From: Candidatus Nomurabacteria bacterium
Lineage (GTDB): Bacteria > Patescibacteriota > Patescibacteriia > HK-STAS-PATE-3
NCBI GenBank assembly: GCA_023898465.1
Contig: CP060223.1
Span: 64,001-128,000, forward strand
Length of the DNA: 64,000 nt
Reading direction: 5' to 3'
A model generated the notes under the pieces. The model had not been told where the DNA came from, did not search any database, and saw only the letters and a program-made list of their open reading frames with translations. A program made the translations under genes and the position numbers. Shown one piece after another: positions 3,001-24,318 of this stretch; positions within the stretch are counted from its first letter, which is position 1; each line of letters begins with the position of its first letter.

Positions 3001-3854
3001 CAACCACTGCCTTACAATATGGCACTACGACTAATTATGGATTTACAGTGAATGACACTAGTGGCTCATTTGCCTTCACACATACTTTGCAGCTACAAGG
3101 CTTGGCCGACGGCACGACATATAATGTCCAGTTAACCGGTACTGATCGTAGTGGAAATGCCGTCCAATCTGACAACTATGTATTTACTACGCTGACCTTC
3201 CCGCGCATCCTCAGCTTTGAAACTGAAAACAAAGCAGAGGGAGAGACTGAAGTTCGTTGGACTACCAATGTGCCAACTACTTCTCTCGTTGAGTACTATA
3301 ACGAAACAAGTCCGCCAAAAACACAAGGTAACACTGCCCTGGTGACTGATCACGCTATCCTCCTCTTTGGTCTCGAGGACGCTACAGTATACAACTATAC
3401 AATTCTCGGCGAAGATCAGTTTGGTAATAAGGTAGAGTCGGATGAAAATAATTTCCGTACCTTGGAAGATACCACGCCGCCAATTATTTCCAACGTAAAA
3501 GTAGAATCAAACACCATTGGTTCTGGTGAGGCTTCTCGTGTACAGATCATTGTTAGCTTCCGGACAAATGAACCCACCTCTACTCAAGTGCTCTATGGAC
3601 AGGGATCAGCAGGTACCACCCAAGAGACTGATGTAAATGGTGAGCTTGTGTATGATCATTTGATGGTTATTCAAGATCTTGATCCGGCGCGTACTTACGT
3701 CGTAAAAGCTGTGGCAGTTGATAAGGCCGGAAACGGTTCAGAGTCTGATGTGTACACTGTGTTGACGTCACGATCACGTGATTCCTTCCTCCAGCTTATC
3801 ATCGCCAACCTCGAAGACACCTTTGCCTGGCTCGGTAATTTGACTCCGGGTTAG
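3..3854 (+). CDS. giant FN3-repeat cell-surface protein (paralog 0), 5'-truncated by window edge; ends with conserved C-terminal tail
   Basis: The reading frame is open from nt 3, and the first in-frame GTG is at 42. There are multiple ~100-aa FN3-like repeats (TTPP...EW.T...YG...TTYYYRV). The C-terminus, RDSFLQLIIANLEDTFAWLGNLTPG, is homologous to the tails of the four downstream genes. Confidence 0.75.
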   Translation, partial: GTGAYGYAGLSLDVTNPANTSVSLETRTCSDAGCAGDENDAHWSDWAEATSTQSLGSVTSYTVASSVAQYGQVRIRFVSDQLYTSSVHSLSWSSYSDGTAPNNPSAASAYTDSGKTTGITDNTWTAETTPYFEWSSTDNTGGIGVQGAYVYFGTNSALDPVDDADDATNLAYKSGTNFYNASSGTVSWDASTQASGSLSSGTYYLKVKTQDFNTNVTASAASIFTYKIDTQVPTDPSGVSADPAGYTSVNNFDFSWTASSDTHSGVTQYCWKTGDVGSTDTCIDSSITTVTDILAYQTRGNTFYVRAKDNAGNYSNYATTTYFYAGDAPTEPLTLVATPTTAENTNAFSFSWSLPNTCLGRTPCQAADIIRYCYTINELPSQANCGTNLDGNATPSPDGGWTTSTQTSNRLLPAFSAATQQDVNTLYLVAADAINNIDYANYAEVNYTFTSTAPGPPASLQATDSSDRASEEFSTTLTWSTPSDVGDGVELYKIYRCDENSTDCDNPSSSEDPPTYYTNIANTTTRGYLDVELDTTITYRYFVRAIGPGNAPSGNSAVVSIKPEGKFVNPPLIIGQVSAVPKVTTAEMEWLTADDVGTGGVVIPHPASSFVEYGETTAYGNETGSSELVNAHSVTITGLAADTTYHARAFWIDVDGNRGESSDFEFTTLGAPSAPTNVTVDPTTNTANRFTFSWDAPSDEGIEIGGYFYSVNTLPNETNAKFTANTSVGPFRAATQQDKNTFYVVASDTSANVDFDNYATVEFEAHTTPPEPPLNLFIEDSSNRDTENYLATLTWSEPGIPTSTGGLVSSEEVDEEISYEVYRKAEGEDDFSKIASVSSTAYLDAGLEGGKTYEYTVTAADSAGATSDQAEAVDVVPTGRYTTPPDITQGPTVTADSFSAKVEWDTERPTSSFIEFGLTADLGDEQGTSDLISDHSVIVTGLKPTTTYYYRVKSIDIDENVGYSSVGSFTTLEAPRVLDAKISNIRLFDATITWTTNKETTTALQYGTTTNYGFTVNDTSGSFAFTHTLQLQGLADGTTYNVQLTGTDRSGNAVQSDNYVFTTLTFPRILSFETENKAEGETEVRWTTNVPTTSLVEYYNETSPPKTQGNTALVTDHAILLFGLEDATVYNYTILGEDQFGNKVESDENNFRTLEDTTPPIISNVKVESNTIGSGEASRVQIIVSFRTNEPTSTQVLYGQGSAGTTQETDVNGELVYDHLMVIQDLDPARTYVVKAVAVDKAGNGSESDVYTVLTSRSRDSFLQLIIANLEDTFAWLGNLTPG

Positions 3855-3991
3855 CGAGATAAGATAGGGTAAAAATCCTTTTTGGGTTTGAAAAAACTCA
3901 GAGTGTTTTGTTGTTGACGAAATGATGAAAATATATCAAAATAAAACGGTAGTTTAACTTTTCTTTACTGAAAGAAAAAGGGGGATTTGGC

Positions 3992-6900
3992 TTGAAGATT
4001 AGCCAAGGAAAGAAAAAACAGGACTGGAAGGCTAGAAAAAAGAGAAAGTCAGGAAGATTCAGCCTTTTCAGTAATTTTTTTCAGAAAAATCGACGTCGTC
4101 AGACTAAACTGGAGCAACCCCACAGCTTAAAGCCTGGGGCTGTTTTATTGCAGCTTTTTAGACAGACGCGACGTTACCGGGCTCAACAGCTTGTCTCTAT
4201 TAGTCTGGCAATTGTTTTGCTCTTGGCTTTTGGTTTTCAAATGTTTGTTGTAGCGGCGCCACCTGAAACTGCTTTTACGACGGTAAGCTCCGATGCTGAA
4301 TGGAATATGGGCACGCTTGAAGATGTCACTGTGAATAGTGGCAGCATTGAAATTTCTGGAGACGGGGGAGCTGGCTGGTTGAGTGGATGGCAAAATAGGC
4401 AGCCGGTCACAATTACCAATACCGGTTCAGCGCAGACAAACTATCAAGTAAGAGTTGATGTTACCTATGATGCCAAAATGCAGGCGGATTTTGATGATTT
4501 ACGTTTTGCAAAAGCTGATGGCACTGAGCTGGACTTTTGGCTGCAATCTAAAGTTGATTCTACCTCAGCCGTTGTTTGGGTGGAGGTGGATTCTTTGGCT
4601 GGATCGGGCGATACGGTGATCTACATGTATTACAATAATTCTGGCGCTTCGAGTACATCGGACGGAGCGGCGACTTTTCCTCTCTTTGATGATTTCAATG
4701 ATGCAAGTATAGACACGGGTAAATGGGTAGAAGTTGATCCCAGCTCAAAAATTGATGAATCAGCCGGATCGCTCCGTTTCCTTTACGGGTCTGGTAGTGG
4801 AGCATGGAATGCAAGTGTGTATGGCGTCACTTCTTTTACGCGGGCGGATTGGAGTTTTGAGTGGGATCAAACTTGGATTAGCGATTATAATCCATATGAC
4901 GCCTTCATGTTTGGCTGGAAAGATGATGGCGGAGCGGTAAGTTACACAAATCTCGTGTATGGCTACTACAATAGTGGGTCGGGTTTTTGTACAACGAACT
5001 GTACAGGGAATGTGTATGAAGATGGGAATAGTCGGGGAAATGCTGGAGTATGGGACAAAGATGTAACGTATAATCTGCGGGTTCGCATGCGAAGTGCTGG
5101 CGGAGCTTACTATGAAAAGAGTACAAACAATGGGGGATCATGGACAACCGATTATACAAGCACCTATTCAACTGAGGCTTCTCTTCATCCAGCCTGGATG
5201 CATTACGCAGGTGATTATTTGATTGATAATGTGCGGGTACGTAAATGGATGGCAAGCGAGCCAAGTCTTGTCTTTGGCACCGAAGAATCCGCCCTCCAAT
5301 CACCTGGGACCTACACCTCCCACAACCTTGATCTCCAGTATATCTACCAATGGGGAGACTGTGCCTCTGGCTGTAATGACTCTTCCACTGCCTTCACTAC
5401 CAACATCACGGTTCCCAGTAACACCTCAGTCCAGTTTGAACTCCGCCATTCAGCTGACGGCTCCACCAACTGGTCATCATGGACATCCCTGGCTACCTAC
5501 ACTACCTCTGGTACCAAAACGCTCACCCGAGGAGACCTAGTGGGTCTCATTGGTGATATCTTCAATCGTTATGTCCAAACTCGGATTACGCTGACCTCCT
5601 CAGATGGGAGTAGTAATCCTTCCATCGCTGACTACCGCTACGACTACACCAGAGAAACTGATCCGCCCAGTAATCCCAACACGCAGAATGGCTATGCCTC
5701 GAATGGAGGAGCAGCCATTACTTCAGGTAATTGGTACAACCATCCAGCTCCCTACTTCACCTGGAGTGGCGCCAGTGACACTGATGCTGGTATGTCCGGA
5801 GGCTACTCCGGCTACTGGGTCTGCTTTGGCACCTCATCCTGTGAACCTACCTCTGGTACCTTTGTGTCTTCCGCTGCCTACACGGCTGGGAGTCTCACTA
5901 CCAATACGACCTACTACCTCCGCATCAAAGCGAGAGATGCTGCCGGCAATGTGGCCACCTCAGCCTACGATGCCTTTACCTACAAATACGACGCCACCCC
6001 ACCAGCCAATCCCTCTGGTATCCTGCCTGATCCGGCTGGCTTTACCAATGTGAATGACTTTGACTTCACCTGGAATACCGGCTCCGATGCGGGTGGCTCT
6101 GGTATTGCTGAATACTGCTACAAGACCGGAGAAGATGGCTATGTCGAAACCTGTACCGCCTCCACCTCAGTCACGGGTATTACTGCCTACCAAGAAGGAG
6201 CCAATATCTTTTACGTGAGAAGTAAAGATATCGCTGGCAACCTCCCCACCTTCTACACCCAGGTCTCTTACTACTACTCTGCCAATGCGCCTTCACCACC
6301 GCAAGGACTCGAGGTGGACCCCACAGAGAACACGGCCAACTCCTTTACCTTTACCTGGCTACTTCCCGCCTCCTACTCCAATCCGATTGCCACCTACCAT
6401 TACTCGGTAAATGCCTTACCCACGGCAAGTAACACGACCGCAACGACCAACCTCAGTGTCGGTCCTGGTGCCTTTGCCACCCAACAAGGCACGAACATCT
6501 TCTATGTCGTCGCCAAAGACACCGCTGGCAACGTGGAATGGGACTCCTACGCTGCAGTTGAGTTCACCGCCAATACCACTGCTCCAGGTATTCCAACTGG
6601 TGTGACCCTGACAGACTCATCCATTCGGGCCCAGAACAAGTATTCCCTCACCCTCACCTGGGATGCTCCAGAGAACGAAGGCTCAGGTATTGATCACTAC
6701 GTCATTGACCGCTCAACCACTATCGGCTGCAGTGATGGTTCAGGTACCTGGGTCCAGCATGCCACCACCACCGCTGAAGGCTACTTTGATCCGAATCTTT
6801 CCAATACCACGACCTACTGCTACCGCGTGAAGGCAGCCGACAATGCCGGAGCCCAATCCGCCACCTCCTCTATTGTCTCCATGCGTCCAGAAGGCCGCTT

Positions 6901-7528
6901 CACTGAACCTCCAGAACTCATTGGCTCCCCAGGGGTTGAAGCCTACATCCAGTCGGCGACCGTCGAGTGGCTGACTGATCGCGAAGGCAGCTCCTTTGTG
7001 GAGTTTGGCACGTCCTCAGATACTCTTGATCGTGTCATGGGCCAAGACGACTTTGTGACCAGTCACAGTGTCACCCTCCTCGACCTTGATCCGGCTACTA
7101 CCTACTACTATCGTACGAAATACACTGACCAAGACAGTAATACCGGCTATTCTTCAGTCCTCTCCTTTACCACTGCTGATGCACCGTCAGCTCCGACCAA
7201 CCTCAGTGTGGACCCAGAGAGTAATACCCGAAACTCCTTTACCTTTGCCTGGGATCCCCCCAGTGATGCTGGAGTCACTATTCAAGGCTACTTCTACAGT
7301 GTGAATGATGTCCCCACCAGTACGAATACCTCCTTCACTGCTCAGCAAGAGCTTGGCCCTGGCGCATATGCCACGAGACAAGGGAGAACGTCTTCTACCT
7401 TGTCGCTATTGATGAAGGAACAATGTGAACTACGACAACTATGCTGCAGTCGCTTTCACTGCCACGACCCCCGCTCCTGCCATCCCCACCGGCCTCATCA
7501 TTACCGATGCCTCGAACCGAGAAACTGA
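3992..7528 (+). CDS. giant surface protein paralog 1, N-terminal 1178-aa part (basic tail + TM anchor, DUF2341-like, ConA/glucanase-like head, FN3 array); frame lost near 7381-7420
   Basis: A TTG start is preceded by the RBS aaaggggga. A K/R-rich N-terminus is followed by a hydrophobic helix. The motif W.NRQPVTI...DFDDLRFAKADGTELDFWLQ...VWVEV...IYMYYNN matches DUF2341, and FDDFND..IDTGKW opens a ConA-like domain, followed by FN3 repeats. The ORF stops after two 1-nt deletions (GGGG->GGG at ~7384, loss of c at ~7419) relative to the intact copy at 22700. Confidence 0.7.
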   Translation: MKISQGKKKQDWKARKKRKSGRFSLFSNFFQKNRRRQTKLEQPHSLKPGAVLLQLFRQTRRYRAQQLVSISLAIVLLLAFGFQMFVVAAPPETAFTTVSSDAEWNMGTLEDVTVNSGSIEISGDGGAGWLSGWQNRQPVTITNTGSAQTNYQVRVDVTYDAKMQADFDDLRFAKADGTELDFWLQSKVDSTSAVVWVEVDSLAGSGDTVIYMYYNNSGASSTSDGAATFPLFDDFNDASIDTGKWVEVDPSSKIDESAGSLRFLYGSGSGAWNASVYGVTSFTRADWSFEWDQTWISDYNPYDAFMFGWKDDGGAVSYTNLVYGYYNSGSGFCTTNCTGNVYEDGNSRGNAGVWDKDVTYNLRVRMRSAGGAYYEKSTNNGGSWTTDYTSTYSTEASLHPAWMHYAGDYLIDNVRVRKWMASEPSLVFGTEESALQSPGTYTSHNLDLQYIYQWGDCASGCNDSSTAFTTNITVPSNTSVQFELRHSADGSTNWSSWTSLATYTTSGTKTLTRGDLVGLIGDIFNRYVQTRITLTSSDGSSNPSIADYRYDYTRETDPPSNPNTQNGYASNGGAAITSGNWYNHPAPYFTWSGASDTDAGMSGGYSGYWVCFGTSSCEPTSGTFVSSAAYTAGSLTTNTTYYLRIKARDAAGNVATSAYDAFTYKYDATPPANPSGILPDPAGFTNVNDFDFTWNTGSDAGGSGIAEYCYKTGEDGYVETCTASTSVTGITAYQEGANIFYVRSKDIAGNLPTFYTQVSYYYSANAPSPPQGLEVDPTENTANSFTFTWLLPASYSNPIATYHYSVNALPTASNTTATTNLSVGPGAFATQQGTNIFYVVAKDTAGNVEWDSYAAVEFTANTTAPGIPTGVTLTDSSIRAQNKYSLTLTWDAPENEGSGIDHYVIDRSTTIGCSDGSGTWVQHATTTAEGYFDPNLSNTTTYCYRVKAADNAGAQSATSSIVSMRPEGRFTEPPELIGSPGVEAYIQSATVEWLTDREGSSFVEFGTSSDTLDRVMGQDDFVTSHSVTLLDLDPATTYYYRTKYTDQDSNTGYSSVLSFTTADAPSAPTNLSVDPESNTRNSFTFAWDPPSDAGVTIQGYFYSVNDVPTSTNTSFTAQQELGPGAYATRQGRTSSTLSLLMKEQCELRQLCCSRFHCHDPRSCHPHRPHHYRCLEPRN

Positions 7529-8999
7529 AGACTACTCTATTGCCTTGAAGTGGAAAGCAGTGACCACTGAACAAGCCGGTAGCCTGGAAGATGACGCGGT
7601 GACCTACGAGATTCTCCGTTCCACTGATGGAGACAGCTTCTCCACCGTGGCCAACATTACCTCGACTGGCTACCTGGACGTCGATCTCGACAATACGACG
7701 GAGTATTACTACCAAGTGAAAGCCAAAGACTCCGCCGGCGCTGCTTCAGCTCCTTCGACCACCGTCTCAGATATCCCTGAGGGGAGATATACCACTCCAC
7801 CGGAGATTACCAAAGCCCCCCACGTTACTCCTTCCAGCTTCTCAGCCAAGGTAGAGTGGAGTACTGGACGGCCAACTACCTCCTTTGTTCAATTTGGCAC
7901 TAACCCCGCCTCATTAACAGAAGAGCAGGGTACTTCAAACCTTATCGCTGACCACGAGGTAACCATTGAGGGTTTGCAGCCTGAAACTACGTATTCATAT
8001 AGAGTAAAAAGTGTTGATGTGGATGGAAACATTTCACATTCAAGTGTTGCTACATTTACCACCCAGGCTGCTCCACGTGTTTCAAATGTAGGCATCAGCG
8101 ACGTACGTTTATTTGATGCTCTCATTAGCTGGGAAACAAATAAAGCGACCACAACTTCACTTGAGTATGGCACCACCACGAACTATGGTACAACGGTGAG
8201 CGATGCAACAGGATCAACTACCACATCTCATTTATATAAGTTAGAGAATTTGCAAGATGACACGCTCTACCATCTTCGTTTCCGTGGCGTTGATGCAGAA
8301 GGGACGCAAGTTAGTTCCGACGACTACACCTTCACCACCCTGACTTTCCCCCGGGTCGAGAACATCACCTGGGCTAATCAAGCCGAAGGCGAGACCGAAG
8401 TGCAATGGACTACGAATGTCCCCACCACCTCCCAAGTGGAATATTACAACGAAACTACTCCAGCCAAGACCCAAGGTAATACGGTCCTGACCACGGAACA
8501 CTCCGTCCTCCTCTTTGGCCTCGACGATGCCACCATTTACCAATTCCAAGTCCGAGGCACTGACCAATTTGGCTACGAAGCCATCTCAGATGAGCAAGAG
8601 TTCCGTACCCTGGAAGATACTACCCCTCCAGTCGTGAGTAATGTGCAGGTAGAGTCCAATACCATTGGCTCAGGTGAGCTCTCTCGTGTGCAGATCATTG
8701 TCCGCTGGACCACCAATGAGCCTACCTCTTCTCAAGTCCGCTTTGGTGAAGGAAATAACCTTTCCTCTGAATCAGATGTGAACCCAGAGTTAGTCTATGA
8801 TCACCTCCTTGTCGTCTCAGACCTAGAACCAGCGAGAACCTACAATATTCAAGCTATTGCCGTCGACAAAGCAGGGAATAGTACTGACTCTGATACCTAC
8901 CGAGTGCTTACCACCCGTCGGAGAGATTCCTTCCTCCAACTGGTCATTGGCAACCTGGAAGACACCTTTGCCTGGTTTACTAATATTGGAGGACTCTGA
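7425..8999 (+). CDS. C-terminal continuation of paralog 1 (FN3 repeats + conserved C-terminal tail) in shifted frame
   Basis: It translates as ...YDNYAAVAFTATTPAPAIPTGLIITDASNRETE..., collinear with residues ~1190-1712 of the intact paralog 4. It ends in ...RRRDSFLQLVIGNLEDTFAWFTNIGGL. Confidence 0.65.
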   Translation: MNYDNYAAVAFTATTPAPAIPTGLIITDASNRETEDYSIALKWKAVTTEQAGSLEDDAVTYEILRSTDGDSFSTVANITSTGYLDVDLDNTTEYYYQVKAKDSAGAASAPSTTVSDIPEGRYTTPPEITKAPHVTPSSFSAKVEWSTGRPTTSFVQFGTNPASLTEEQGTSNLIADHEVTIEGLQPETTYSYRVKSVDVDGNISHSSVATFTTQAAPRVSNVGISDVRLFDALISWETNKATTTSLEYGTTTNYGTTVSDATGSTTTSHLYKLENLQDDTLYHLRFRGVDAEGTQVSSDDYTFTTLTFPRVENITWANQAEGETEVQWTTNVPTTSQVEYYNETTPAKTQGNTVLTTEHSVLLFGLDDATIYQFQVRGTDQFGYEAISDEQEFRTLEDTTPPVVSNVQVESNTIGSGELSRVQIIVRWTTNEPTSSQVRFGEGNNLSSESDVNPELVYDHLLVVSDLEPARTYNIQAIAVDKAGNSTDSDTYRVLTTRRRDSFLQLVIGNLEDTFAWFTNIGGL

Positions 9000-11900
9000 T
9001 GGCACGGACGATGAAACATTGGCATAGAGGTGCAAAGAAGCGACCAGCTCATCCAGCAACACGTACGAGCTATCGTCGAAAATATCGCCAGCAAGTAGGT
9101 ATCTCGATTGCGGTGTTTTCACTTTTCCTACTCACTATCTCGTCATTTATCCAGGCAGCCGCACCAGAAGCCACCTACGTTGAAGTAACTTCAGACGCGG
9201 ACTGGAACATGGGCACCTTGAGCGATGTTACGGTGAATAGTGGGAGTATTGAAATCTCTGGAGATGGGGGAGCAAACTGGATAGCAGAATCAGGATGGCA
9301 ATTGCGGCAAAAGATTACCTTTGATGCTTCTACGCTCACGACATCTCTGAGTTATTTTCCCATCATGGTGCATATTGATAATACAAATACGGATTTTTGG
9401 GCAGGAGCGGCAAGTCGTGACGAAGTACGCTTCGGTGATAGCGATGGTGCCGTTTTAGATTTTCATTTTGAAAAATTTGATCATACTGCCGATGATGCCA
9501 TTGCCTGGGTTGAAGTGCCAACGCTAACTAATGATTCTTCTGATCACATATATCTCTATTATGGACACGCTTCACCAGCTAACGGTGAAGATGAAGCGGG
9601 CACCTATGATAATGACGGAAATTTTGTTGGCGTTTGGCACATGGCAGAGACAAGTGGTACGTCATATGATTCTACAAGTAATAACGTTGACCTCACTCCT
9701 CGCAATGCACCAACCCAAGATGAAACTGGCAAGGTAAATGGAGGAGATGGCTTCACAGGAAACGGCGACGCGCTCCATAATCAAACGTCAAGTATCGTAT
9801 TTGGAAATAGTATTACTCTAGAAGGTTGGTTTAAGCGAACCGGATCCGGTACTGGGTCCGGAAGAATTTTAGAATTTTCCCTGGATGGCGACGCTGATAG
9901 CCACGCCTTAGCCGTCGATTCAGACGGTTCACTTCGAGCCTGGGTGCAATGTACGACTGGTCGAGTTGGCAGCGCTGATGATCCTACTGTATATGGTACA
10001 GGAACTTGGTATTACTTCGCTTACACCTATGACGGATCGATTGGTCGACTTTATGTGAATGGTGTTCAGAAAAAAACTGCAAGTGGATCTTGTGCAAATT
10101 TAGATGATGCAGGGGACACTATTCTTGGAGCAATTTCTGACCAGAGCGGTGCTTACTCCCTGCCGCAACATGAATTTGATGGATATTTAGATGAACATCG
10201 TGCTTCTGATGTAGCTCGATCAGCTGATTGGATTAAAGCTGCTTATCTCTCCGAAACCGACACCCTCATCTCGACCTGGGGAAGTGAAGAATCCGCCCTC
10301 CAATCACCTGGCACTTACACCTCCCACAACCTTGATCTCCAGTATATCTACCAATGGGGAGACTGTGCCTCTGGCTGTAATGACTCTTCCACTGCCTTCA
10401 CTACCAACATCACGGTTCCCAGTAACACCTCAGTTCAGTTTGAACTCCGCCATTCAGCTGACGGCTCCACCAACTGGTCATCATGGACATCCCTGGCCAC
10501 CTACACCTCCTCTGGTACCAAAACGCTCACCCGAGGAGAGATGGTCACCCTCGTAGGCGATATCTTCAATCGTTATGTCCAAACCAGAATTACCCTCAGC
10601 TCCTCAGATGGCAGTAGTAATCCTTCCATCGCTGACTACCGCTACGACTACACCAGAGAAACTGATCCCCCCAGTAATCCCAACACCCAGAATGGCTATG
10701 CCTCGAATGGAGGAGCAGCCATTACTTCAGGTAATTGGTACAACCATCCTGCTCCCTACTTCACCTGGAGTGGAGCCAGTGATACTGATGCTGGTATGTC
10801 CGGAGGCTACTCCGGCTACTGGGTCTGCTTTGGCACCTCATCCTGTGAACCTACCTCTGGTACCTTTGTGTCTTCCGCTGCCTACACGGCTGGGAGTCTC
10901 ACTACCAATACGACCTACTACCTCCGCATCAAAGCGAGAGATGCTGCCGGCAATGTGGCCACCTCAGCCTACGATGCCTTTACCTACAAATACGACGCCA
11001 CCCCACCAGCCAATCCCTCTGGTATCCTGCCTGATCCGGCTGGCTTTACCAATGTGAATGACTTTGACTTCACCTGGAATACCGGCTCCGATGCGGGTGG
11101 CTCTGGTATTGCTGAATACTGCTACAAGACCGGAGAAGACGGCTATGTCGAAACCTGTACCGCCTCCACCTCAGTCACGGGTATTACTGCCTACCAAGAA
11201 GGAGCCAATATCTTTTACGTGAGAAGTAAAGATATCGCTGGCAACCTTCCCACCTTCTACACCCAGGTGTCCTACTACTACTCGGCCAATGCTCCTTCAC
11301 CACCGCAGGGACTTGCGGTTGATCCGACCGAGAACACGGCGAACTCCTTTACCTTTACCTGGCTTGCTCCCGCCTCCTACTCCAACCCGATTGCCACCTA
11401 CCATTACTCGGTGAATGCCTTACCCACGGCAAGTAACACGACCGCAACGACCAACCTCAGTGTCGGTCCTGGTGCCTTTGCCACCCAACAAGGCACGAAC
11501 ATCTTCTATGTCGTCGCCAAAGACACCGCTGGCAACGTGGAATGGGACTCCTACGCTGCAGTTGAGTTCACCGCCAATACCACTGCTCCAGGTATTCCAA
11601 CTGGTGTGACCCTGACCGACTCATCCATTCGGGCCCAGAACAAGTATTCCCTCACCCTCACCTGGGATGCTCCAGAGAACGAAGGCTCAGGTATTGATCA
11701 CTACGTCATTGACCGCTCAACCACTATCGGCTGCAGTGATGGTTCAGGTACCTGGGTCCAGCATGCCACCACCACCGCTGAAGGCTACTTTGATCCGAAT
11801 CTTTCCAATACCACCACCTACTGCTACCGCGTGAAGGCAGCCGACAATGCCGGAGCCCAATCCGCCACCTCCTCTATTGTCTCCATGCGTCCAGAAGGCC

Positions 11901-12268: not shown

Positions 12269-12279
12269 TGAAGGAGTAG

Positions 12280-13563: not shown

Positions 13564-13632
13564 CCAATTTGGCTACGAAGCCATCTCAGATGAGCAAGAG
13601 TTCCGTACCCTGGAAGATACTACCCCTCAGTC

Positions 13633-13998: not shown

Positions 13999-14036
13999 CA
14001 TAGAGAAAGTTGAAGAAGTTTTAGGAATTTCCTGAT

Positions 14037-14065: not shown

Positions 14066-14423
14066 ATAACAACAAAAAATAATTTTAATTTGCGAAATTA
14101 AGGATTTTGGCTTGAAGATTAGCCAAAAAATTTTTTTCGGGGAAGAGAAAAAGAGCCAAGGCTCAAATATCTCAAGCACGAAAAAAACAAGACTTCAAAG
14201 CTATCTAACTGGTAGCATGCTTCATAGAAAAGAAAAAAACCAGGCAACTCTGCGCGTGGTTTTTTTGTGCTGACAAAAAAATATCGCCTGCAGTCAGTCA
14301 TCTCGGTAATGCTTGCCATTACTTTAGGTTTCGGCATTTTTTGCAGTTTAATGCAATTGCCGCTCCACCAGAAGCCACTTACATTGAAGTAACTTCAGAC
14401 GCAGACTGGAACATGGGCACCTT

Positions 14424-17597: not shown

Positions 17598-18051
17598 TGA
17601 AGCGAACAATGTGAACTACGACAACTATGCTGCAGTCGCTTTCACTGCCACGACCCCTGCTCCTGCCATCCCCACCGGCCTCATCATTACCGATGCCTCG
17701 AACCGAGAAACTGAAGACTACTCTATTGCCTTGAAGTGGAAAGCAGTGACCACTGAACAAGCCGGTAGCCTGGAAGATGATGCGGTGACCTACGAGATTC
17801 TCCGTTCCACTGATGGAGACAGCTTCTCCACCGTGGCCAACATTACCTCGACTGGCTACCTGGATGTCGATCTCGACAATACGACGGAGTATTACTACCA
17901 AGTGAAAGCCAAAGACTCCGCCGGCGCTGCTTCAGCTCCTTCGACCACCGTCTCAGATATCCCTGAGGGAGATATACCACTCCACCGGAGATTACCAAAG
18001 CCCCCACGTTACTCCTTCCAGCTTCTCAGCCAAGGTAGAGTGGAGTACTGA
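17488..18051 (+). CDS. paralog 3 fragment (FN3 repeat) between frameshifts
   Basis: The portion from ~17570 on reads ENVFYLVAIDEANNVNYDNYAAVAFTATTPAPAIPTGLIITD..., collinear with the other copies. It is flanked by homopolymer indels (acccAgaaac, C6->C5, C insertions at 17495-17520, loss of g at ~17970). Confidence 0.5.
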   Translation: MMSPTSTNTSLHCSARAWPWRICHETRENVFYLVAIDEANNVNYDNYAAVAFTATTPAPAIPTGLIITDASNRETEDYSIALKWKAVTTEQAGSLEDDAVTYEILRSTDGDSFSTVANITSTGYLDVDLDNTTEYYYQVKAKDSAGAASAPSTTVSDIPEGDIPLHRRLPKPPRYSFQLLSQGRVEY

Positions 18052-18244
18052 CCGTGATGCTGATTCCCACGTAGAATATGGCAGCACCTCAGATCTCACT
18101 GAAGAGCAAGGGACGATTGATGAAACTGATGAACATAGCATCCAACTCGAAGGACTCCAACCAGAAACGACCTATTACTACCGTATTCGTTCACGTGACC
18201 AAGATGGCAATGTAGCCCTCTCGAGCATCACTACCTTTACTACC

Positions 18245-19180
18245 TTGGAGGCACCGAGGGTGTCGGATGTGGTCATTTCTGATATCAAACTTTACGATGC
18301 GCTTATTGCGTGGAAAACAAACAAGGCAACAACAACGGTTTTGGAATATGGTACGACTGAGCAATACGGCCAAAGTCTCGCAGATACTTCTGGGTCCCTT
18401 ACCACGAACCATATTGTGAAGCTTGATAGCTTAACCGATGATACACTGTATCATTTCCGTCCTACTGGTTTCGACGAGAGCGGGAATGCTCCAGAGAGTA
18501 GCGACTACACCTTCACCACCCTGACCTTCCCCCGGGTCGAGAACATCACCTGGGCTAATCAAGCCGAAGGCGAGACCGAAGTGCAATGGACTACCAATGT
18601 CCCCACCACCTCCCAAGTGGAATACTACAACGAAACTACTCCAGCCAAGACCCAAGGTAATACGGTCCTGACCACGGAACACTCCGTCCTTCTCTTTGGC
18701 CTCGACGATGCCACCATTTACCAATTCCAAGTCCGAGGCACTGACCAATTTGGCTACGAAGCCATCTCAGATGAGCAAGAGTTCCGTACCCTGGAAGATA
18801 CTACCCCCCCAGTCGTGAGTAATGTGCAGGTAGAGTCCAATACCATTGGCTCAGGTGAGCTCTCTCGTGTGCAGATCATTGTCCGCTGGACCACCAATGA
18901 GCCTACCTCTTCCCAAGTCCGCTTTGGTGAAGGAAATAACCTTTCCTCTGAATCAGATGTGAACCCAGAGTTAGTCTATGATCACCTCCTTGTCGTCTCA
19001 GACCTAGAACCAGCGAGAACCTACAATATTCAGGCTATTGCCGTTGACAAAGCAGGGAATAGTACTGACTCTGATACCTACCGAGTGCTTACCACCCGTC
19101 GGAGAGATTCCTTCCTCCAACTGGTCATTGGCAACCTGGAAGACACCTTTGCCTGGTTTACCAATATTGGGGGGTTGTGA
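18245..19180 (+). CDS. paralog 3 C-terminal fragment (FN3 repeats + conserved tail)
   Basis: The collinear in-frame region starts at about 18010 (after the stop ending ORF 17488..18051) and ends in ...RRRDSFLQLVIGNLEDTFAWFTNIGGL. Its stop overlaps the next start (gTGATGa). Confidence 0.6.
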   Translation: MEAPRVSDVVISDIKLYDALIAWKTNKATTTVLEYGTTEQYGQSLADTSGSLTTNHIVKLDSLTDDTLYHFRPTGFDESGNAPESSDYTFTTLTFPRVENITWANQAEGETEVQWTTNVPTTSQVEYYNETTPAKTQGNTVLTTEHSVLLFGLDDATIYQFQVRGTDQFGYEAISDEQEFRTLEDTTPPVVSNVQVESNTIGSGELSRVQIIVRWTTNEPTSSQVRFGEGNNLSSESDVNPELVYDHLLVVSDLEPARTYNIQAIAVDKAGNSTDSDTYRVLTTRRRDSFLQLVIGNLEDTFAWFTNIGGL

Positions 19181-22100
19181 TGAGTCGACGGATGCGACAT
19201 TTTAGCGTAGGACATAAAGGATTAACTCCGAGAGTAAGTCGGAAAAACTCACGTCATTCAAAATTATCACGATATAAGTCAAGATATCACGTTCAAGTTA
19301 TTCTCACCTTGACGGTTCTTGTTTTTGCTTCAGTGTTTGGGGTAGCTATTCCATACCTACAAGCGGTTCCAACAAATAATACCGAGACCTTTACGCTGAG
19401 TAGCGATTTTAGTGGAGGGGTATTAACTGATGTTGATGTGAGTAATGACGAAATTAAACTGTCTGGAGGAGCGGAAAATTGGTGGGACGCAAACTATCAA
19501 TATCGTCGACAACTTACGGTTACAAATGATTCTGCTGGAACTGCTGAAGTAGGCACAACAGCTACCATCAGCATTGATACTTCGGCGCTTGAGACAGCAG
19601 GGAAGTTGCGTTCAGATCGTAATGACTGGCGAGTAGTATATTGGAACGGCTCGAGTAATGAAGAGCTTGATCGTGTCTACGAAAGTACTAGTTCGACTGT
19701 TTTTGCTATTCAGGCCACTATCGCGGGAAGTGGTGGATCAAGTAGTGATTATTATGTGTACTACGGGTACTCAAGTGAGTCCTCAACTCCGCCAAGTACG
19801 GTGGGTAACGTAAAGACGGTACTCAGCATGCATACAACCGCTAACCAAGTTTTAACAAGTGGAGTTACAAACCTTGGTATTGCTACTGACGGTGACTACG
19901 TTTACATGTCAAATGGGTCTCAGTTATCAAAACTTAACCTTGATGGGTCATTAGTTGGCACTAAGACAGTGAGTATTGGTGGTGCAAATAGAGGACTCGG
20001 TTTTGCTGATGGACGGGTTATTGGTCGAGACTTAAGTAATAATCTTTATGCGTATGACTGGGATAGCTCAACATTATCTCCATTGAGTATTCCAGGTGGA
20101 CATCCACTTTTATCAGGTCAATCCTGGATGAATCATAATCTTGTGACTGATTCGAGCGATCGGATTGGTACCGTGCAGTATGCATCTGGCGGTATGATTC
20201 TGCGTCGCTACACTATTAGTGGTAACACGCTCACTTGGTTAGATGATATCACCCTAGGTGGAACCTATCACTCAGTAGATAATCATGGCTTTACTATGAG
20301 CAACGACTATCTCGTAATGGTGAGTTATAGTGATGGATGGCGACGATGGAGCTTGCCTGATGGTACAGAGGAAGTTGACTTTGGGAATTTTGGCGGGACT
20401 GGTACAAATACTGAAACTCACCCTAGTGGGATGTCGAATCCAACTTTTATTGATTATAACTGGAAGACCGGGGAAATATATCTTGGTGACTATAGTTCAG
20501 CTGAGTATTTTCGATATGCTAATGAAGCTTTAGTTACTTCTCCTACTTTATCTGTTACTGATGGAGGTGAAGTTGGATCACTTACTCCTATTGGTACCTT
20601 TGCTTCAAATCAAACTGATACAGGGGATGACGCATTTATAAATCTTGCTCGCATCTTTGCCTGGGGGAGTGGTGGCGGTGATAGTGATACAGCATTTACC
20701 GCAAACGTAACGATGAGCGATCCTTCTCATTCGACACTTAGCTTTGAGCTACGTAGTGCTTCATCTATTGCTAATCTAGCGTCAGCAACATATTACTCAC
20801 TTGGCTCGCCAACGAGCTCTGGTGCATATACGCTGACCAAAGGACAGATGGATGCTTTAAATAGTGGAAGCGGGGTTTTACCCTCCAGTGTGAATAAGTA
20901 TTTTCAGTTACGCATTTCATTTACCTCAAGTGATGGCTTAGCCAACCCTTCAGTGCAGGATTTTGCTTTTCATTATCAGGAAGACAACGACGCCCCATCA
21001 CCACCATCGCCGGTTAACGGAGCTGGGTATGATGAAGAGGGTGGAGATGTCATCTCTCAAACTACCTGGTATAACTACCCAACTCCATACTTTACTTGGG
21101 ATGATGCCATAGATGGAGATTCTAGTATTGATGGGTATTATGTTTGCTTTGGAACTAGCAGTTGCGATCCAAGCGCTGGTTCCTATGTGACTACTGCAGA
21201 GTATACTGCAGTGTCGTTAACAAGCAATCAAAAGTATTCTTTACGAGTGAAGGCTCGTGACACTGCTGGGAATGTTTCTGCAACCTTCTCGGTATTTGAA
21301 TATTGGTACGACGCCACCCCACCAGCCAATCCCTCTGGTATCCTGCCTGATCCGGCTGGCTTTACCAATGTGAATGACTTTGACTTCACCTGGAATACCG
21401 GCTCCGATGCGGGTGGCTCTGGTATTGCTGAATACTGCTACAAGACCGGAGAAGATGGCTATGTCGAAACCTGTACCGCCTCCACCTCAGTCACGGGTAT
21501 TACTGCCTACCAAGAAGGAGCCAATATCTTTTACGTGAGAAGTAAAGATATCGCTGGCAACCTCCCCACCTTCTACACCCAGGTCTCTTACTACTACTCT
21601 GCCAATGCGCCTTCACCACCGCAAGGACTCGAGGTGGACCCCACAGAGAACACGGCCAACTCCTTTACCTTTACCTGGCTACTTCCCGCCTCCTACTCCA
21701 ATCCGATTGCCACCTACCATTACTCGGTAAATGCCTTACCCACGGCAAGTAACACGACCGCAACGACCAACCTCAGTGTCGGTCCTGGTGCCTTTGCCAC
21801 CCAACAAGGCACGAACATCTTCTATGTCGTCGCCAAAGACACGGCTGGCAACGTGGAATGGGACTCCTACGCTGCAGTTGAGTTCACCGCCAATACCACT
21901 GCTCCAGGTATTCCAACTGGTGTGACCCTGACAGACTCATCCATTCGGGCCCAGAACAAGTATTCCCTCACCCTCACCTGGGATGCTCCAGAGAACGAAG
22001 GCTCAGGTATTGATCACTACGTCATTGACCGCTCAACCACTATCGGCTGCAGTGATGGTTCAGGTACCTGGGTCCAGCATGCCACCACCACCGCTGAAGG

Positions 22101-24318
22101 CTACTTTGATCCGAATCTTTCCAATACCACGACCTACTGCTACCGCGTGAAGGCAGCCGACAATGCCGGAGCCCAATCAGCGACCTCTTCTATTGTTTCC
22201 ATGCGTCCAGAAGGCCGCTTCACTGAACCCCCAGAACTCATTGGCTCCCCAGGGGTTGAGGCCTACATCCAGTCGGCCACCGTCGAGTGGCTGACTGATC
22301 GCGAAGGCAGCTCCTTTGTGGAGTTTGGCACTGCTGCAGATACCCTTGATCGCATCATGGGCCAAGATGACTTTGTGACGAGTCACAGTGTCACCCTCCT
22401 CGATCTTGAGCCAGCCACCACCTACTACTATCGTACGAAATACACTGACCAAGACAGTAATACCGGCTATTCTTCAGTCCTCTCCTTTACCACTGCTGAT
22501 GCACCGTCAGCTCCGACCAACCTCAGTGTGGACCCAGAGAGTAATACCCGAAACTCCTTTACCTTTGCCTGGGATCCCCCCAGTGATGCTGGAGTCACTA
22601 TTCAAGGCTACTTCTACAGTGTGAATGATGTCCCCACCAGTACGAATACCTCCTTCACTGCTCAGCAAGAGCTTGGCCCTGGCGCATATGCCACGAGACA
22701 AGGGGAGAACGTCTTCTACCTTGTCGCTATTGATGAAGCGAACAATGTGAACTACGACAACTATGCTGCAGTCGCTTTCACTGCCACGACCCCCGCTCCT
22801 GCCATCCCCACCGGCCTCATCATTACCGATGCCTCGAACCGAGAAACTGAAGACTACTCTATTGCCTTGAAGTGGAAAGCAGTGACCACTGAACAAGCCG
22901 GTAGCCTGGAAGATGACGCGGTGACCTACGAGATTCTCCGTTCCACTGATGGAGACAGCTTCTCCACCGTGGCCAACATTACCTCGACTGGCTACCTGGA
23001 CGTCGATCTCGACAATACGACGGAGTATTACTACCAAGTGAAAGCCAAAGACTCCGCCGGCGCTGCTTCAGCTCCTTCGACCACCGTCTCAGATATCCCT
23101 GAGGGGAGATATACCACTCCACCGGAGATTACGAAGGGTCCAAATGTAACCCCGGATTCATTTGAAGCAGGCATTGCCTGGGAAACCGATCGAGACGCAG
23201 ACTCGCATGTTGAGTACGGGACGAATTCTTCTTTAGGGGAGGAACAGGGTACAATCGATGAGACTGACGATCATTCCGTCCAACTCGAAGGACTCCAACC
23301 AGAAACGACTTATTACTATCGCATTCGTTCACGTGACCAAGATGGCAATGTAGCCCTCTCGAGCATCACTACCTTTACTACCTTGGAGGCACCTTTTGTT
23401 TCTGAAGTGCTTGTCTCAGATATTCGCCTCTATGATGCATATATTAATTGGACAACAAATAAAGCGACCACAACTTCACTTGAGTATGGTACTACGACTG
23501 GTTATGGACAGACTATTACTGACACTTCAGGATCACTCACAACAACCCATACCGTACATTTAGAGAATTTAACTGACGATACCACATACAATTTTAAGCC
23601 AACAGGAGTGGATATTACTGGCAATAACCCGGCGAGTGGTAACTACACCTTCACCACCCTGACCTTCCCCCGGGTCGAGAACATCACCTGGGCTAATCAA
23701 GCCGAAGGCGAGACCGAAGTGCAATGGACTACCAATGTCCCCACCACCTCCCAAGTGGAATATTACAACGAAACTACTCCAGCCAAGACCCAAGGTAATA
23801 CGGTCCTGACCACGGAACACTCCGTCCTTCTCTTTGGCCTCGACGATGCCACCATTTACCAATTCCAAGTCCGAGGCACTGACCAATTTGGCTACGAAGC
23901 CATCTCAGATGAGCAAGAGTTCCGTACCCTGGAAGATACTACCCCTCCAGTCGTGAGTAATGTGCAGGTAGAGTCCAATACCATTGGCTCAGGTGAGCTC
24001 TCTCGTGTGCAGATCATTGTCCGCTGGACCACCAATGAGCCTACCTCTTCCCAAGTCCGCTTTGGTGAAGGAAATAACCTTTCCTCTGAATCAGATGTGA
24101 ACCCAGAGTTAGTCTATGATCACCTCCTTGTCGTCTCAGACCTAGAACCAGCGAGAACCTACAATATTCAGGCTATTGCCGTTGACAAAGCAGGGAATAG
24201 TACTGACTCTGATACCTACCGAGTGCTTACCACCCGTCGGAGAGATTCCTTCCTCCAACTGGTCATTGGCAACCTGGAAGACACCTTTGCCTGGTTTACC
24301 AATATTGGGGGGTTTTAA
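19180..24318 (+). CDS. giant surface protein paralog 4, intact (~1712 aa): basic tail + TM anchor, DUF2341-like, unique ~550-aa head (repetitive, propeller-like), shared FN3 module, conserved C-terminal tail
   Basis: The ATG at 19180 overlaps the upstream TGA (an in-frame GTG lies at 19177). The frame is uninterrupted. N-terminal motifs are NYQYRRQLTV...DWRVVYWNG...YYVYYGY. The region 21300-22700 is ~identical to the other copies. Confidence 0.8.
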   Translation: MSRRMRHFSVGHKGLTPRVSRKNSRHSKLSRYKSRYHVQVILTLTVLVFASVFGVAIPYLQAVPTNNTETFTLSSDFSGGVLTDVDVSNDEIKLSGGAENWWDANYQYRRQLTVTNDSAGTAEVGTTATISIDTSALETAGKLRSDRNDWRVVYWNGSSNEELDRVYESTSSTVFAIQATIAGSGGSSSDYYVYYGYSSESSTPPSTVGNVKTVLSMHTTANQVLTSGVTNLGIATDGDYVYMSNGSQLSKLNLDGSLVGTKTVSIGGANRGLGFADGRVIGRDLSNNLYAYDWDSSTLSPLSIPGGHPLLSGQSWMNHNLVTDSSDRIGTVQYASGGMILRRYTISGNTLTWLDDITLGGTYHSVDNHGFTMSNDYLVMVSYSDGWRRWSLPDGTEEVDFGNFGGTGTNTETHPSGMSNPTFIDYNWKTGEIYLGDYSSAEYFRYANEALVTSPTLSVTDGGEVGSLTPIGTFASNQTDTGDDAFINLARIFAWGSGGGDSDTAFTANVTMSDPSHSTLSFELRSASSIANLASATYYSLGSPTSSGAYTLTKGQMDALNSGSGVLPSSVNKYFQLRISFTSSDGLANPSVQDFAFHYQEDNDAPSPPSPVNGAGYDEEGGDVISQTTWYNYPTPYFTWDDAIDGDSSIDGYYVCFGTSSCDPSAGSYVTTAEYTAVSLTSNQKYSLRVKARDTAGNVSATFSVFEYWYDATPPANPSGILPDPAGFTNVNDFDFTWNTGSDAGGSGIAEYCYKTGEDGYVETCTASTSVTGITAYQEGANIFYVRSKDIAGNLPTFYTQVSYYYSANAPSPPQGLEVDPTENTANSFTFTWLLPASYSNPIATYHYSVNALPTASNTTATTNLSVGPGAFATQQGTNIFYVVAKDTAGNVEWDSYAAVEFTANTTAPGIPTGVTLTDSSIRAQNKYSLTLTWDAPENEGSGIDHYVIDRSTTIGCSDGSGTWVQHATTTAEGYFDPNLSNTTTYCYRVKAADNAGAQSATSSIVSMRPEGRFTEPPELIGSPGVEAYIQSATVEWLTDREGSSFVEFGTAADTLDRIMGQDDFVTSHSVTLLDLEPATTYYYRTKYTDQDSNTGYSSVLSFTTADAPSAPTNLSVDPESNTRNSFTFAWDPPSDAGVTIQGYFYSVNDVPTSTNTSFTAQQELGPGAYATRQGENVFYLVAIDEANNVNYDNYAAVAFTATTPAPAIPTGLIITDASNRETEDYSIALKWKAVTTEQAGSLEDDAVTYEILRSTDGDSFSTVANITSTGYLDVDLDNTTEYYYQVKAKDSAGAASAPSTTVSDIPEGRYTTPPEITKGPNVTPDSFEAGIAWETDRDADSHVEYGTNSSLGEEQGTIDETDDHSVQLEGLQPETTYYYRIRSRDQDGNVALSSITTFTTLEAPFVSEVLVSDIRLYDAYINWTTNKATTTSLEYGTTTGYGQTITDTSGSLTTTHTVHLENLTDDTTYNFKPTGVDITGNNPASGNYTFTTLTFPRVENITWANQAEGETEVQWTTNVPTTSQVEYYNETTPAKTQGNTVLTTEHSVLLFGLDDATIYQFQVRGTDQFGYEAISDEQEFRTLEDTTPPVVSNVQVESNTIGSGELSRVQIIVRWTTNEPTSSQVRFGEGNNLSSESDVNPELVYDHLLVVSDLEPARTYNIQAIAVDKAGNSTDSDTYRVLTTRRRDSFLQLVIGNLEDTFAWFTNIGGF

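Follow-up and report, generated by a model that had tools for sequence, protein, structure and literature searches.

The giant proteins encoded in the stretch of Candidatus Nomurabacteria DNA analysed here (64,000 nucleotides, hereafter the window) end in a tail of about 30 residues which is the signature end of a large family of giant adhesin-like proteins of the Patescibacteria (CPR), and the genes carrying this tail almost always adjoin those of one particular MacB-type ABC transporter. The reading that we favour, tentatively and at a little less than an even chance, is that the adjacent transporter, of the MacB/LolC type, would recognise the tail as a handle and thereby anchor or actuate the Sec-exported giant proteins through a putative physical contact.

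Five giant paralogs, numbered 0 to 4, are encoded on the forward strand. Paralog 0 (3–3854) lies in a frame open to the window start, its N-terminus being outside the window. Paralog 1 (3992–8999), which has a DUF2341 head, is split into two ORFs, with 1-nt indels near 7382 and 7418, paralog 2 (8999–13998), with a DUF2341 and LamG head, into three ORFs, and paralog 3 (14100–19180, start approximate) is interrupted by several frameshifts, located where G or C is repeated a few times. Thus copies 1–3 are broken by 1-nt indels into two to four ORFs and copy 4 (19177–24318, 1713 aa) is the sole intact ORF; domain matches give for the latter a head unlike that of the other copies, which leads into a series of FN3 and purple-acid-phosphatase-N-like domains and finally into the tail. 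Where the sequence is almost the same as in copy 4, the indels fall at G or C homopolymers two to six nucleotides long (for example G4 to G3, C6 to C5), and judging from the letters the pattern in copies 1–3 looks like long-read assembly error.

Paralog 4 starts with a likely Sec signal peptide (19177–19365, forward strand), made of a K/R-rich region and a hydrophobic segment (best 19-residue Kyte-Doolittle mean 2.44), with cleavage predicted between YLQA and VPT. Sec-type N-terminal signals with a K/R-rich n-region, a hydrophobic segment and an AxA-like site are present in copies 1, 2 and 4. More widely, 48 of 67 full-length members carry a single signal-like segment at the N-terminus, with an AxA-like site and then a conserved ATYTWxQxxWSGG behind it, and only 1 of 81 members has a second strongly hydrophobic 19-mer. 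The giant proteins have no lipobox or acylation site.

Translation bore out the first-pass annotation in that all five paralogs end with the tail. That of paralog 0 (3765–3854), TSRSRDSFLQLIIANLEDTFAWLGNLTPG, is the sole diverged copy in the window; those of paralogs 1 (8910–8999), 2 (13909–13998) and 3 (19091–19180) read TTRRRDSFLQLVIGNLEDTFAWFTNIGGL, and that of the intact paralog 4 (24229–24318) differs from these in ending with GGF, each tail being on the forward strand and immediately followed by the stop. The stop/start overlaps that had been pointed out are also present, each joining successive paralogs: the stop of paralog 1 overlaps the ATG of paralog 2 (TGATG, 8997–9001) and in GTGATGA (19177–19183) the stop of paralog 3 shares nucleotides with the GTG/ATG start of paralog 4. 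A six-frame scan of the window recovered the motif at the five paralog ends and as one chance match on the non-coding strand, at 46534.

Within-window evidence alone proves little about conservation of the tail. Copies 1–4 share 98–99% DNA identity across the last ~670 nt, so that their identical tails represent one observation and not four. Copy 0 had been described as otherwise diverged and still keeping the tail, which was not confirmed: it is 68% identical to copy 4 over the last domain and the tail, and neighbouring domains are conserved as well as the tail itself, the amino-acid identity between the two copies (25-codon windows) being 0.72–0.80 in the tail and 0.80–0.88 at residues 1062–1101 or 1137–1181. 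Persistence of the tail in copy 0 and identity of copies 1–4 are therefore weak arguments. Constraint at the DNA level was also considered, measured as the share of DNA-identical codons among those with the same amino acid in copies 0 and 4, and was rejected, as the share in the tail (0.60–0.65) is equalled by residues 1157–1186.

Conservation beyond this paralog family was established by a profile search. While a single-sequence word-index search with the last 128 aa returned only the query protein itself, an exhaustive HMMER search with a two-copy profile, whose best representatives were taken as 50%-identity clusters, showed that the consensus motif T[IV]LTP[RQK]xx[EQ]S[VIF][LIF][QD][ILV]I[IVL]xN[FL]ExTF[GS][WF] forms the C-terminal end in 82 of the 150 best protein clusters. 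The motif ends giant genes at 35 genome loci, on which one alignment of the tail (flavour A) was used, and at no fewer than about 74 metagenome loci, at least, on which a second one (flavour B) was used. Among the best 150 cluster representatives it lies 2–11 residues from the C-terminus (mode 6) and is never internal, and its placement at the genome and metagenome loci is the same. Recurring in hundreds of unrelated contigs, and always terminal, the motif is far more than a chance resemblance.

All records that name a lineage below bacteria are from Patescibacteria (Nomura-, Kerfeld-, Uhr-, Pace- and Parcubacteria, CPR3). The remaining titles are one locus labelled only as bacterium and six TPA records titled uncultured Gammaproteobacteria, which we take as generic mislabels. 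The highest information content was found at F12 (80 of 81), I4, S-1, N7, E9 and Q/D2. Polar as well as hydrophobic positions are fixed even between clusters that share less than 50% identity, a pattern that is typical of a specific protein contact rather than of generic lipid binding. As the first-pass annotation had it, the tail matches no named motif: no Pfam or NCBIfam family corresponds to it, NCBIfam models of any kind, including those for sorting signals, gave no match to the tails at E values up to 1–10, and no LPXTG, PEP, PGF or GlyGly signature is visible in them. Neither the tail nor its linkage to an ABC transporter is described in the literature that we searched on CPR giant proteins, MacB/FtsX and sorting signals (including PMC10936435).

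An ABC ATPase gene of the LolD/MacB/FtsE type (24368–25090, forward strand) begins 49 nt past the stop of paralog 4 and is followed by a gene (25094–26314, forward strand) for an FtsX-family permease with a MacB-like periplasmic core domain. The ATPase matches the LolD, MacB and FtsE models, all below the equivalog cut-offs, and the permease scores 78 bits with PF02687 and 72 bits with PF12704. The pair has the features of a type VII ABC system, namely a LolD/FtsE-type ATPase together with a C-terminal FtsX module of 4 TM and, between TM1 and TM2, a MacB-like core. Among proteins of solved structure, those nearest to the permease are YtrF, MacB, LolF and LolC/E; its similarity to MacB (E 2e-22) and to LolF (E 4e-14) extends over the full length, that to YtrF (E 5e-32) over the FtsX half. 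Our literature search on YtrEF returned no paper reporting the YtrF structure. A promoter scan placed one promoter-like site (24315–24342) at the junction between copy 4 and the ATPase gene; scanned for promoters and terminators, this junction yielded nothing beyond shuffled expectation, and no terminator was found between the genes.

Orthologues of the ATPase and permease genes begin 3–500 nt past the stop of the last tail gene at 27 of the 35 genome loci, with 50–73% (ATPase) and 47–65% (permease) identity to the window genes. The same downstream pair was found in 39 of 56 informative metagenome loci among the matches listed, with 37–46% and 32–39% identity, respectively. The loci devoid of the pair are either tandem arrays truncated at the end of a contig or additional copies in genomes where another locus is linked to the ABC genes. 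In the reverse look-up, all six permease homologues on long contigs had a giant gene within ~2 kb. A tail gene was directly upstream in four of these loci; in the two others the order differs, the giant gene lying immediately or 2 kb downstream, and the sequence that was read excludes the C-termini of those giant proteins. The tail genes L003, L008, L011 and L017 stand alone, and any interaction between tail and ABC transporter must therefore also work in trans. No other conserved gene, and in particular no conserved peptidase gene, was found around the module in the loci that were read. At one locus (L064), an ORF which by eye looks like an MFP is found ~600 nt downstream of the tail-linked pair; it neighbours a second ABC pair and lies outside the conserved module. 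The suggestion that the tail might co-occur with a dedicated processing enzyme is thus upheld as regards a dedicated machine, since a MacB-type ABC transporter adjoins the tail genes, but not as regards its nature, the machine not being a processing peptidase.

The first-pass annotation had compared the tail to T1SS signals and to archaeosortase or exosortase tails. Such a classical C-terminal signal, which would either direct T1SS export by the adjacent ABC transporter or be cleaved by a dedicated peptidase in the manner of sortase, exosortase or rhombosortase substrates, would agree with the extreme C-terminal position, with the neighbouring ABC genes and with the basic patch ahead of a hydrophobic stretch. 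However, T1SS substrates have a Sec-free N-terminus, and Sec-type signals were found both in the window copies and in most full-length homologues, as described above. A T1SS exporter also requires an ABC_membrane-type transporter with an HlyD-family adaptor and an outer-membrane channel, whereas the linked permease is of the FtsX and MacB_PCD type and no HlyD/MFP-family gene or C39 partner stands beside the tail-linked ABC genes in the loci read. Tails of the sortase, exosortase, archaeosortase and rhombosortase systems (LPXTG, PEP-CTERM, PGF-CTERM, GlyGly-CTERM) need a transmembrane helix and a basic end; the best 19-residue Kyte-Doolittle mean of the present tail is 0.77, as against the value given above for the N-terminal segment of paralog 4, and it therefore holds no transmembrane helix. 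Together with the missing signatures, NCBIfam matches and peptidase gene, these observations make a classical secretion or cleavage signal highly improbable, and this reading is largely refuted.

The T9SS CTD, a beta-sandwich of 70–100 aa (TIGR04183/TIGR04131), was likewise discarded because the tails gave no match, while tail-less control relatives scored 26–43 bits with TIGR04183. Tail-less relatives with FN3 arrays carry a T9SS type A sorting domain at the corresponding terminal position, which, by position only, would fit a sorting or anchoring role for the tail. Like the T9SS CTD and the LPXTG, PEP-CTERM and PGF-CTERM systems, the present one associates a terminal tag on large variable surface proteins with a dedicated machine. 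Unlike the T9SS CTD, the tag is a helix of ~25 residues and not an 80-aa beta-sandwich, and unlike the three others it is not built from a motif, a transmembrane helix and a basic end. The linked machine is here an ABC transporter instead of a transpeptidase, and no cleavage is known for the tail.

The tail belongs to a terminal module of 127 aa (23935–24318 in paralog 4, forward strand), delimited by the profile matches and modelled with AF2. The model comprises a specialised FN3-like beta-sandwich (residues 1–98, pLDDT >95, last strand 95–98), a basic linker of 7 residues with a conserved Pro, and a predicted alpha-helix, FLQLVIGNLEDTFAWFT (residues 106–122, 24250–24300, forward strand, pLDDT ~80). 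In the tail family, the helix is 17–20 residues long and predicted to be amphipathic. The Pfam fn3, FN3_DSCAM and Big envelopes stop by residue 26–33 of a 60-aa fragment, at the latest at YRVLTT. Being located beyond the last FN3 domain, and kept outside the paralog family, the tail is not simply the last strands of an FN3 domain, a possibility raised in the first-pass annotation. Foldseek comparison of the module with the PDB recovered generic FN3 and ApaG-like sandwiches only, none of the matches including the helix or a comparable capping helix.

The helix might be purely structural, either capping the terminal FN3-like domain or bundling with other tails to join fibres, with no function in sorting or anchoring. 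This would account for the fact that the tail is always attached to the same specialised terminal domain, the profile matches spanning positions 1–125 as one unit, and that it was found on no other kind of protein among the about 120 loci listed. The helix is also modelled without any partner, and its broad hydrophobic surface (positions 0, 1, 3, 4, 5, 8, 12, 14 and 15) must be buried somewhere. Against this, the basic linker with its conserved Pro separates the helix from the domain, the plain FN3 matches of Foldseek offer no capping-helix precedent, and the linkage to the ABC genes is left unexplained. We consider a purely structural role unlikely.

In a further explanation, which we regard as slightly less probable still and which relies on analogy with the C-terminal helix of E. 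coli PBP5/PBP6, the helix would tether the fibre by itself as an autonomous in-plane anchor, lying in the cytoplasmic membrane at its outer leaflet, the ABC genes being linked for another reason. The PBP5/PBP6 proteins resemble the giant proteins in being exported by Sec, in losing their signal peptide (cleavage being predicted here), and in ending with an amphipathic helix ~18 residues long. Hydrophobic moments are similar, at 0.34 for flavour A and ~0.5 (up to 0.52) for flavour B versus 0.50 for the PBP5 tail in the same computation. The predicted helicity, the basic patch that precedes the helix and the K/R-rich end of flavour B (FGFLKKLKF), of a kind common in membrane-targeting helices, all speak for such an anchor, as does the fact that no other anchor is visible in the giant proteins. 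However, the helix proper of flavour A has a net charge of -3 and lacks a basic end, and the polar S-1, Q/D2, N7, E9 and T11 are conserved like the hydrophobic positions, both of which argue against binding of the tail to a bilayer on its own. Lipid-binding helices conserve character, not sequence. The tails of PBP5/PBP6 show no sequence conservation and work without a partner, whereas the present one keeps polar residues fixed, is acidic in flavour A and is linked genetically to an ABC transporter. That the tail genes adjoin one ABC clade in a near-obligate manner would be left without explanation.

We therefore favour recognition of the tail as a handle by the ABC transporter, on account of the breadth and strict terminal position of the motif, its fixed polar residues, the helix model, the ABC linkage and the lack of another anchor. 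Type VII ABC systems act on extracytoplasmic protein partners, as in FtsEX-EnvC/PcsB and LolCDE-lipoprotein. The giant protein, organised as a variable N-terminal head, an FN3-like stalk, the conserved terminal FN3-like domain, the short basic linker and the amphipathic helix, would be exported by Sec and probably freed of its signal peptide, and the transporter would then recognise the helix on the outer face of the membrane. The helix may dock on the large extracytoplasmic domain of the permease, as EnvC or PcsB does on FtsX, or it may be captured laterally at the outer leaflet, as LolCDE takes the acyl chains of lipoproteins. As a result, the fibre would be held at the cell surface, or ATP hydrolysis would be coupled to its placement, release or movement.

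Both routes have precedents that differ from the present system in several respects. With FtsEX-EnvC/PcsB/CwlO/RipC it shares an ATPase of the FtsE/LolD kind and an FtsX-family permease that has 4 TM and a large domain on the outside; in the FtsEX systems the exported partner is contacted via a helical element and nothing is transported across the membrane. Here, however, the ectodomain is of the MacB_PCD type (Porter/Sabre) and not an FtsX ECD, the putative partner is an FN3 fibre of 1,200–6,300 aa and not a hydrolase activator, its gene adjoins the ABC genes, and the putative contact element is a single terminal helix instead of a coiled coil. The permease is related in sequence to those of LolCDE/LolDF and MacB, and LolCDE extracts exported proteins from the outer leaflet by a hydrophobic handle. 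In the absence of acylation, the handle would here be a C-terminal peptide helix, unlike the N-terminal acyl chains on which LolCDE acts, and, unlike MacB, the transporter has no MFP or TolC partner. A further difference is that, as far as we know, an outer membrane is not expected in these organisms.

Several observations weigh against the handle. The genes might be adjacent for some other reason, as would be the case if the transporter's partner were the stalk or the entire giant protein rather than the tail. The charges of tail and ectodomain are not complementary: over 58 pairs, the tail net charge and the charge of the permease ectodomain gave r = +0.29, although the comparison says little, the ectodomain being acidic in all cases. 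Moreover, some tail genes stand alone, gene order differs at two of the reverse look-up loci, and a pLDDT of ~80 in the isolated module is compatible with packing of the helix on its own domain.

Patescibacteria make up a large share of bacterial diversity and are ultra-small; to our knowledge they live attached to other cells, yet little is understood of the way in which their surface structures are assembled and retained. The conserved, strictly terminal tag described here is borne by their largest and most variable surface proteins and is tied to one ABC clade across distant lineages, the tail gene, ATPase and permease forming a concrete three-gene module. The motif also provides a simple marker for adhesin-like genes and for true 3' ends in fragmented metagenome assemblies. 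It is conceivable, with somewhat more doubt than for the handle itself, that these elements constitute a sorting or anchoring system of the Patescibacteria's own, in which a helical tag of ~25 residues on giant fibres would be served by a dedicated MacB-type ABC mechanotransducer that would keep the fibres on the cell, or spend ATP in deploying, retracting or releasing them. A physical link would bring a new class of clients to the mechanotransmission ABC family (FtsEX, LolCDE, MacB) and add one more to the few C-terminal signals for sorting or anchoring known from bacteria. Taken together, the linkage between tag and ABC transporter suggests that Patescibacteria may hold or handle their surface proteins in a new way; if true, the combination of a C-terminal tag and a type VII ABC machine would be new, and may be part of the way in which these episymbionts attach to their hosts.

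The first 24.3 kb of the window are occupied by five tandem co-directional paralogs encoding giant proteins (copies 0 to 4). Translation confirmed the C-terminal tails of about 30 residues reported by the first-pass annotation, with the sequence it gave, at 3765-3854, 8910-8999, 13909-13998, 19091-19180 and 24229-24318, as well as the two TGATG overlaps between a stop and the next start (8997-9001 and 19178-19182). Elsewhere in the window the motif was absent, except for one chance match on the non-coding strand. Copy 4 (19177-24318, 1713 amino acids) is the sole unbroken ORF of the five. Copy 0 has a reading frame that runs off the window start; it is collinear with copy 4 from residue 513 on, at 46% identity overall, rising to 60-70% across the C-terminal half. 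Copies 1-3 consist of two to four ORFs each, and the breaks are single-base indels relative to copy 4 (1-nt length differences at 7382, 7418, 13509-13628, 17413-17967 and other sites). Within stretches near-identical to copy 4 these indels fall at G or C runs two to six long, for example CAAGGGGAG to CAAGGGAG and GATCCCCCC to GATCCCCC. Single-base indels at short G/C runs are typical of the errors that long-read assembly or polishing leaves in repeats. The frameshifts in this contig (1.08 Mb, from a 'Candidatus Nomurabacteria' MAG) look like such errors and not like true pseudogenes, and copies 1-3 are probably intact genes in the organism itself.

The in-window evidence for conservation of the tail is weaker than its appearance. 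Copies 1-4 share 98-99% DNA identity across their last 670 nt, so that their tails amount to one data point. Retention of the tail by the diverged copy 0 had been put forward in its favour; in 25-residue windows, however, its identity (0.72-0.80) does not exceed that reached elsewhere in the protein, several other parts of which score 0.80-0.88, and its synonymous-site identity is unexceptional. Over 3992-24318 the paralogs are mosaic, stalk segments 98-99% identical between copies (such as 5987-7810 and 21307-23132) lying beside segments of 87-93% and heads being entirely different (DUF2341 alone, DUF2341 plus LamG, or other), which suggests that heads were exchanged, or that gene conversion took place, on a common stalk and tail. 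The stalk regions 6001-8000, 10001-12000, 16001-18000 and 22001-24000 have a strongly negative GC skew (about -0.2), a raised GC content (0.51-0.54) and spurious long ORFs in other frames and on the opposite strand (e.g. 10575-11057, 15754-16236, 22507-23037), which we take as a compositional effect of repeated coding sequence and not as added genes.

A profile of the last domain plus the tail, run through HMMER against 1.84 billion cluster representatives, was used to look for conservation outside the paralogs. Among the best 150 of 5161 hits, the motif ends 82 proteins of 529-6321 amino acids, whose matches span profile positions 1 to about 125 and stop 1-5 residues short of the protein end. 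The consensus, T-[IV]-L-T-P-[RQK]-x-x-[EQ]-S-[VIF]-[LIF]-[QD]-[ILV]-I-[IVL]-x-N-[FL]-E-x-T-F-[GS]-[WF], is followed by 2-11 residues (mode 6) to the C-terminus, and no internal occurrence was found among the tail-bearing proteins compared. Two variants were distinguished: flavour A, that of the window (…LTSRKRESFLQLIIxNLExTFSWLGNxGxxF), and flavour B, with a basic end (…LTPRQKESVIDLIIKNFExTFGFLKKLKF). All members and loci named below the level of bacteria are Patescibacteria (Nomura-, Kerfeld-, Uhr-, Pace- and Parcubacteria, CPR3), apart from six loci in TPA records titled 'uncultured Gammaproteobacteria', which we take as generic mislabels; one further locus is titled just 'bacterium'. As the first-pass annotation had stated, no named motif is matched: no model in Pfam or NCBIfam matches the tail, even when E values up to 1-10 are allowed, and no published description was found in the literature searched. 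FN3-type Pfam envelopes stop at …YRVLTT at the latest, before the tail. Lying past these envelopes and conserved elsewhere, the tail is thus not just the last FN3 strands of a single paralog family.

An AlphaFold2 model of the 127-residue module (36-sequence alignment, mean pLDDT 91.8) predicted a beta-sandwich (residues 1-98, pLDDT above 95), a linker (99-105) and an alpha-helix (106-122, pLDDT about 80); Foldseek with this module returned plain FN3-like sandwiches only. Such a helix might be a purely structural cap or bundling element of the terminal domain, which we consider unlikely. The tail is amphipathic: its hydrophobic moment is 0.34 for flavour A and about 0.5 for flavour B, the same calculation giving 0.50 for the anchor helix of E. 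coli PBP5. That the tail is an autonomous in-plane anchor of the PBP5 kind is less probable still; the flavour A helix has a net charge of -3, and the best-conserved positions include polar S-1, Q/D2, N7, E9 and T11 alongside F12, I4 and W/F14, a pattern that we read, from sequence, as the likely mark of a specific protein contact.

The giant proteins are laid out in four parts. The N-terminus is K/R-rich with one hydrophobic segment (Kyte-Doolittle 2.44); the head varies, with DUF2341 alone in copy 1, DUF2341 combined with LamG in copy 2 (and, judged by eye, copy 3) and a different head in copy 4; the stalk is a long run of FN3 and Pur_ac_phosph_N-like domains; the tail forms the C-terminal end. 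Among the 67 tail-bearing representatives starting with Met, 48 have just one signal-like segment, at the N-terminus, with an AxA-like site no more than a few residues beyond it and then a strikingly conserved 'ATYTWxQxxWSGG'. Only 1 of 81 tail-bearing representatives has a second strongly hydrophobic 19-mer. If signal peptidase cuts at the AxA-like site, the mature protein would have no membrane anchor except for what the tail contributes. Variation at the head, with stalk and C-terminal tag both conserved, is the arrangement of C-terminally anchored adhesins. ATYTW(T/x)Q(x)(x)WSGG, shared by many tail-bearing proteins, is a further signature of the family, placed where the mature chain would begin (representatives P0002-P0151; 9150-9200 in copy 2), and it had no Pfam or NCBIfam match when the window's paralogs were scanned at full length or by their N-terminal parts.

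An ABC ATPase gene (24368-25090) matching LolD, MacB and FtsE models begins after a gap of 49 nt beyond copy 4. Behind it comes a permease gene (25094-26314) with FtsX and MacB_PCD domains, whose closest solved relatives are YtrF, MacB, LolF and LolC/E. The next genes, a 2-hydroxyacid dehydrogenase and a GAPDH-like gene, are unrelated. Orthologues of both ABC genes start within a few hundred bases of the last tail-gene stop in 27 of 35 flavour A genome loci; the other eight are four tandem arrays cut by a contig end and four solitary tail genes whose genomes also carry an ABC-linked locus. The same order was found in 39 of the 56 flavour B metagenome loci with enough downstream sequence, sometimes with a stop/start overlap at the junction. 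These ABC proteins share just 32-46% identity with their counterparts in the window. In all five flavour B loci of this order that were read completely, the ATPase bears a C-terminal extension of about 190-310 amino acids. Extended ATPases (428-549 amino acids in total; L038 862-2160, L044 8386-9669, L060 8375-10021, L064 3528-4880) show an apparent internally repeated segment (…GG(V/A)GL…R.A…); the window's 240-residue ATPase lacks the extension. Genes past the permease vary from locus to locus. Starting conversely from the permease, six homologues on long contigs were inspected: a tail-bearing giant gene lies directly upstream in four, and in the other two a giant gene lies directly or 2 kb downstream, its 3' end beyond the sequence covered. 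The conserved unit is at least one giant tail protein, the ATPase and the MacB-type permease.

Some neighbouring features were also recorded. Locus L064 carries, at 6762-11492, a second ABC pair behind a 638-residue ORF, by eye a putative coiled-coil HlyD-type adaptor (MFP); the tail-linked pair, with no MFP-like ORF alongside, looks like a separate system. At L118 (4700-5635), a reverse look-up locus, two N_methyl (type IV pilin-like) genes precede the ABC pair, which is separated from the giant gene by genes for a PAS histidine kinase and a response regulator. In the window, about 2.7 kb downstream of the permease gene, a 181-residue ORF (28991-29536) matches Host_attach (PF10116) and bacterial eRF1-like family 12 (PF18856). 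A GC-rich island at 32800-43100 (GC 0.55-0.58 against about 0.46 around) holds seven consecutive plus-strand ORFs without Pfam match, including two weak paralog pairs and several signal-peptide or lipobox-like N-termini (…GC…), and may be horizontally acquired.

The first-pass annotation had likened the tail to T1SS and exosortase-type signals. A classical T1SS or sortase-type signal is very improbable: an N-terminal signal peptide is present, the ABC is of the wrong type (FtsX/MacB_PCD), the tail is not membrane-spanning (best 19-residue Kyte-Doolittle mean 0.77), and neither HlyD adaptor nor peptidase occurs in the conserved unit. The broader proposal, that of a tag for sorting or anchoring served by a partner of its own, remains the leading hypothesis, although the analogies offered were wrong in detail and the adjoining candidate partner is an ABC pair, not a processing enzyme. 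The best-supported reading, which we hold tentatively, is that the tail is a putative recognition handle for the neighbouring type VII ABC machine. This ABC family is known for its action on extracytoplasmic partners and not for transmembrane pumping of solutes: through a helical element, FtsEX holds and activates EnvC, PcsB, CwlO and RipC, and LolCDE extracts lipoproteins from the outer leaflet by their hydrophobic handle. A conserved, wide-faced amphipathic helix ending a Sec-exported fibre would fit either mode, and its recognition would result in anchoring, or in extraction or actuation. Where FN3-array relatives from other organisms lack the tail, their C-terminus is instead a T9SS type A sorting domain (TIGR04183, 26-43 bits), so the terminal position is one that sorting elements occupy in proteins of this class. 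Taken together, the tail is real and reaches further than a single-sequence reading could tell. In kind it would be a variation on what is already known, either C-terminal tags served by their own machinery or type VII ABC systems acting on a client outside the cytoplasm.
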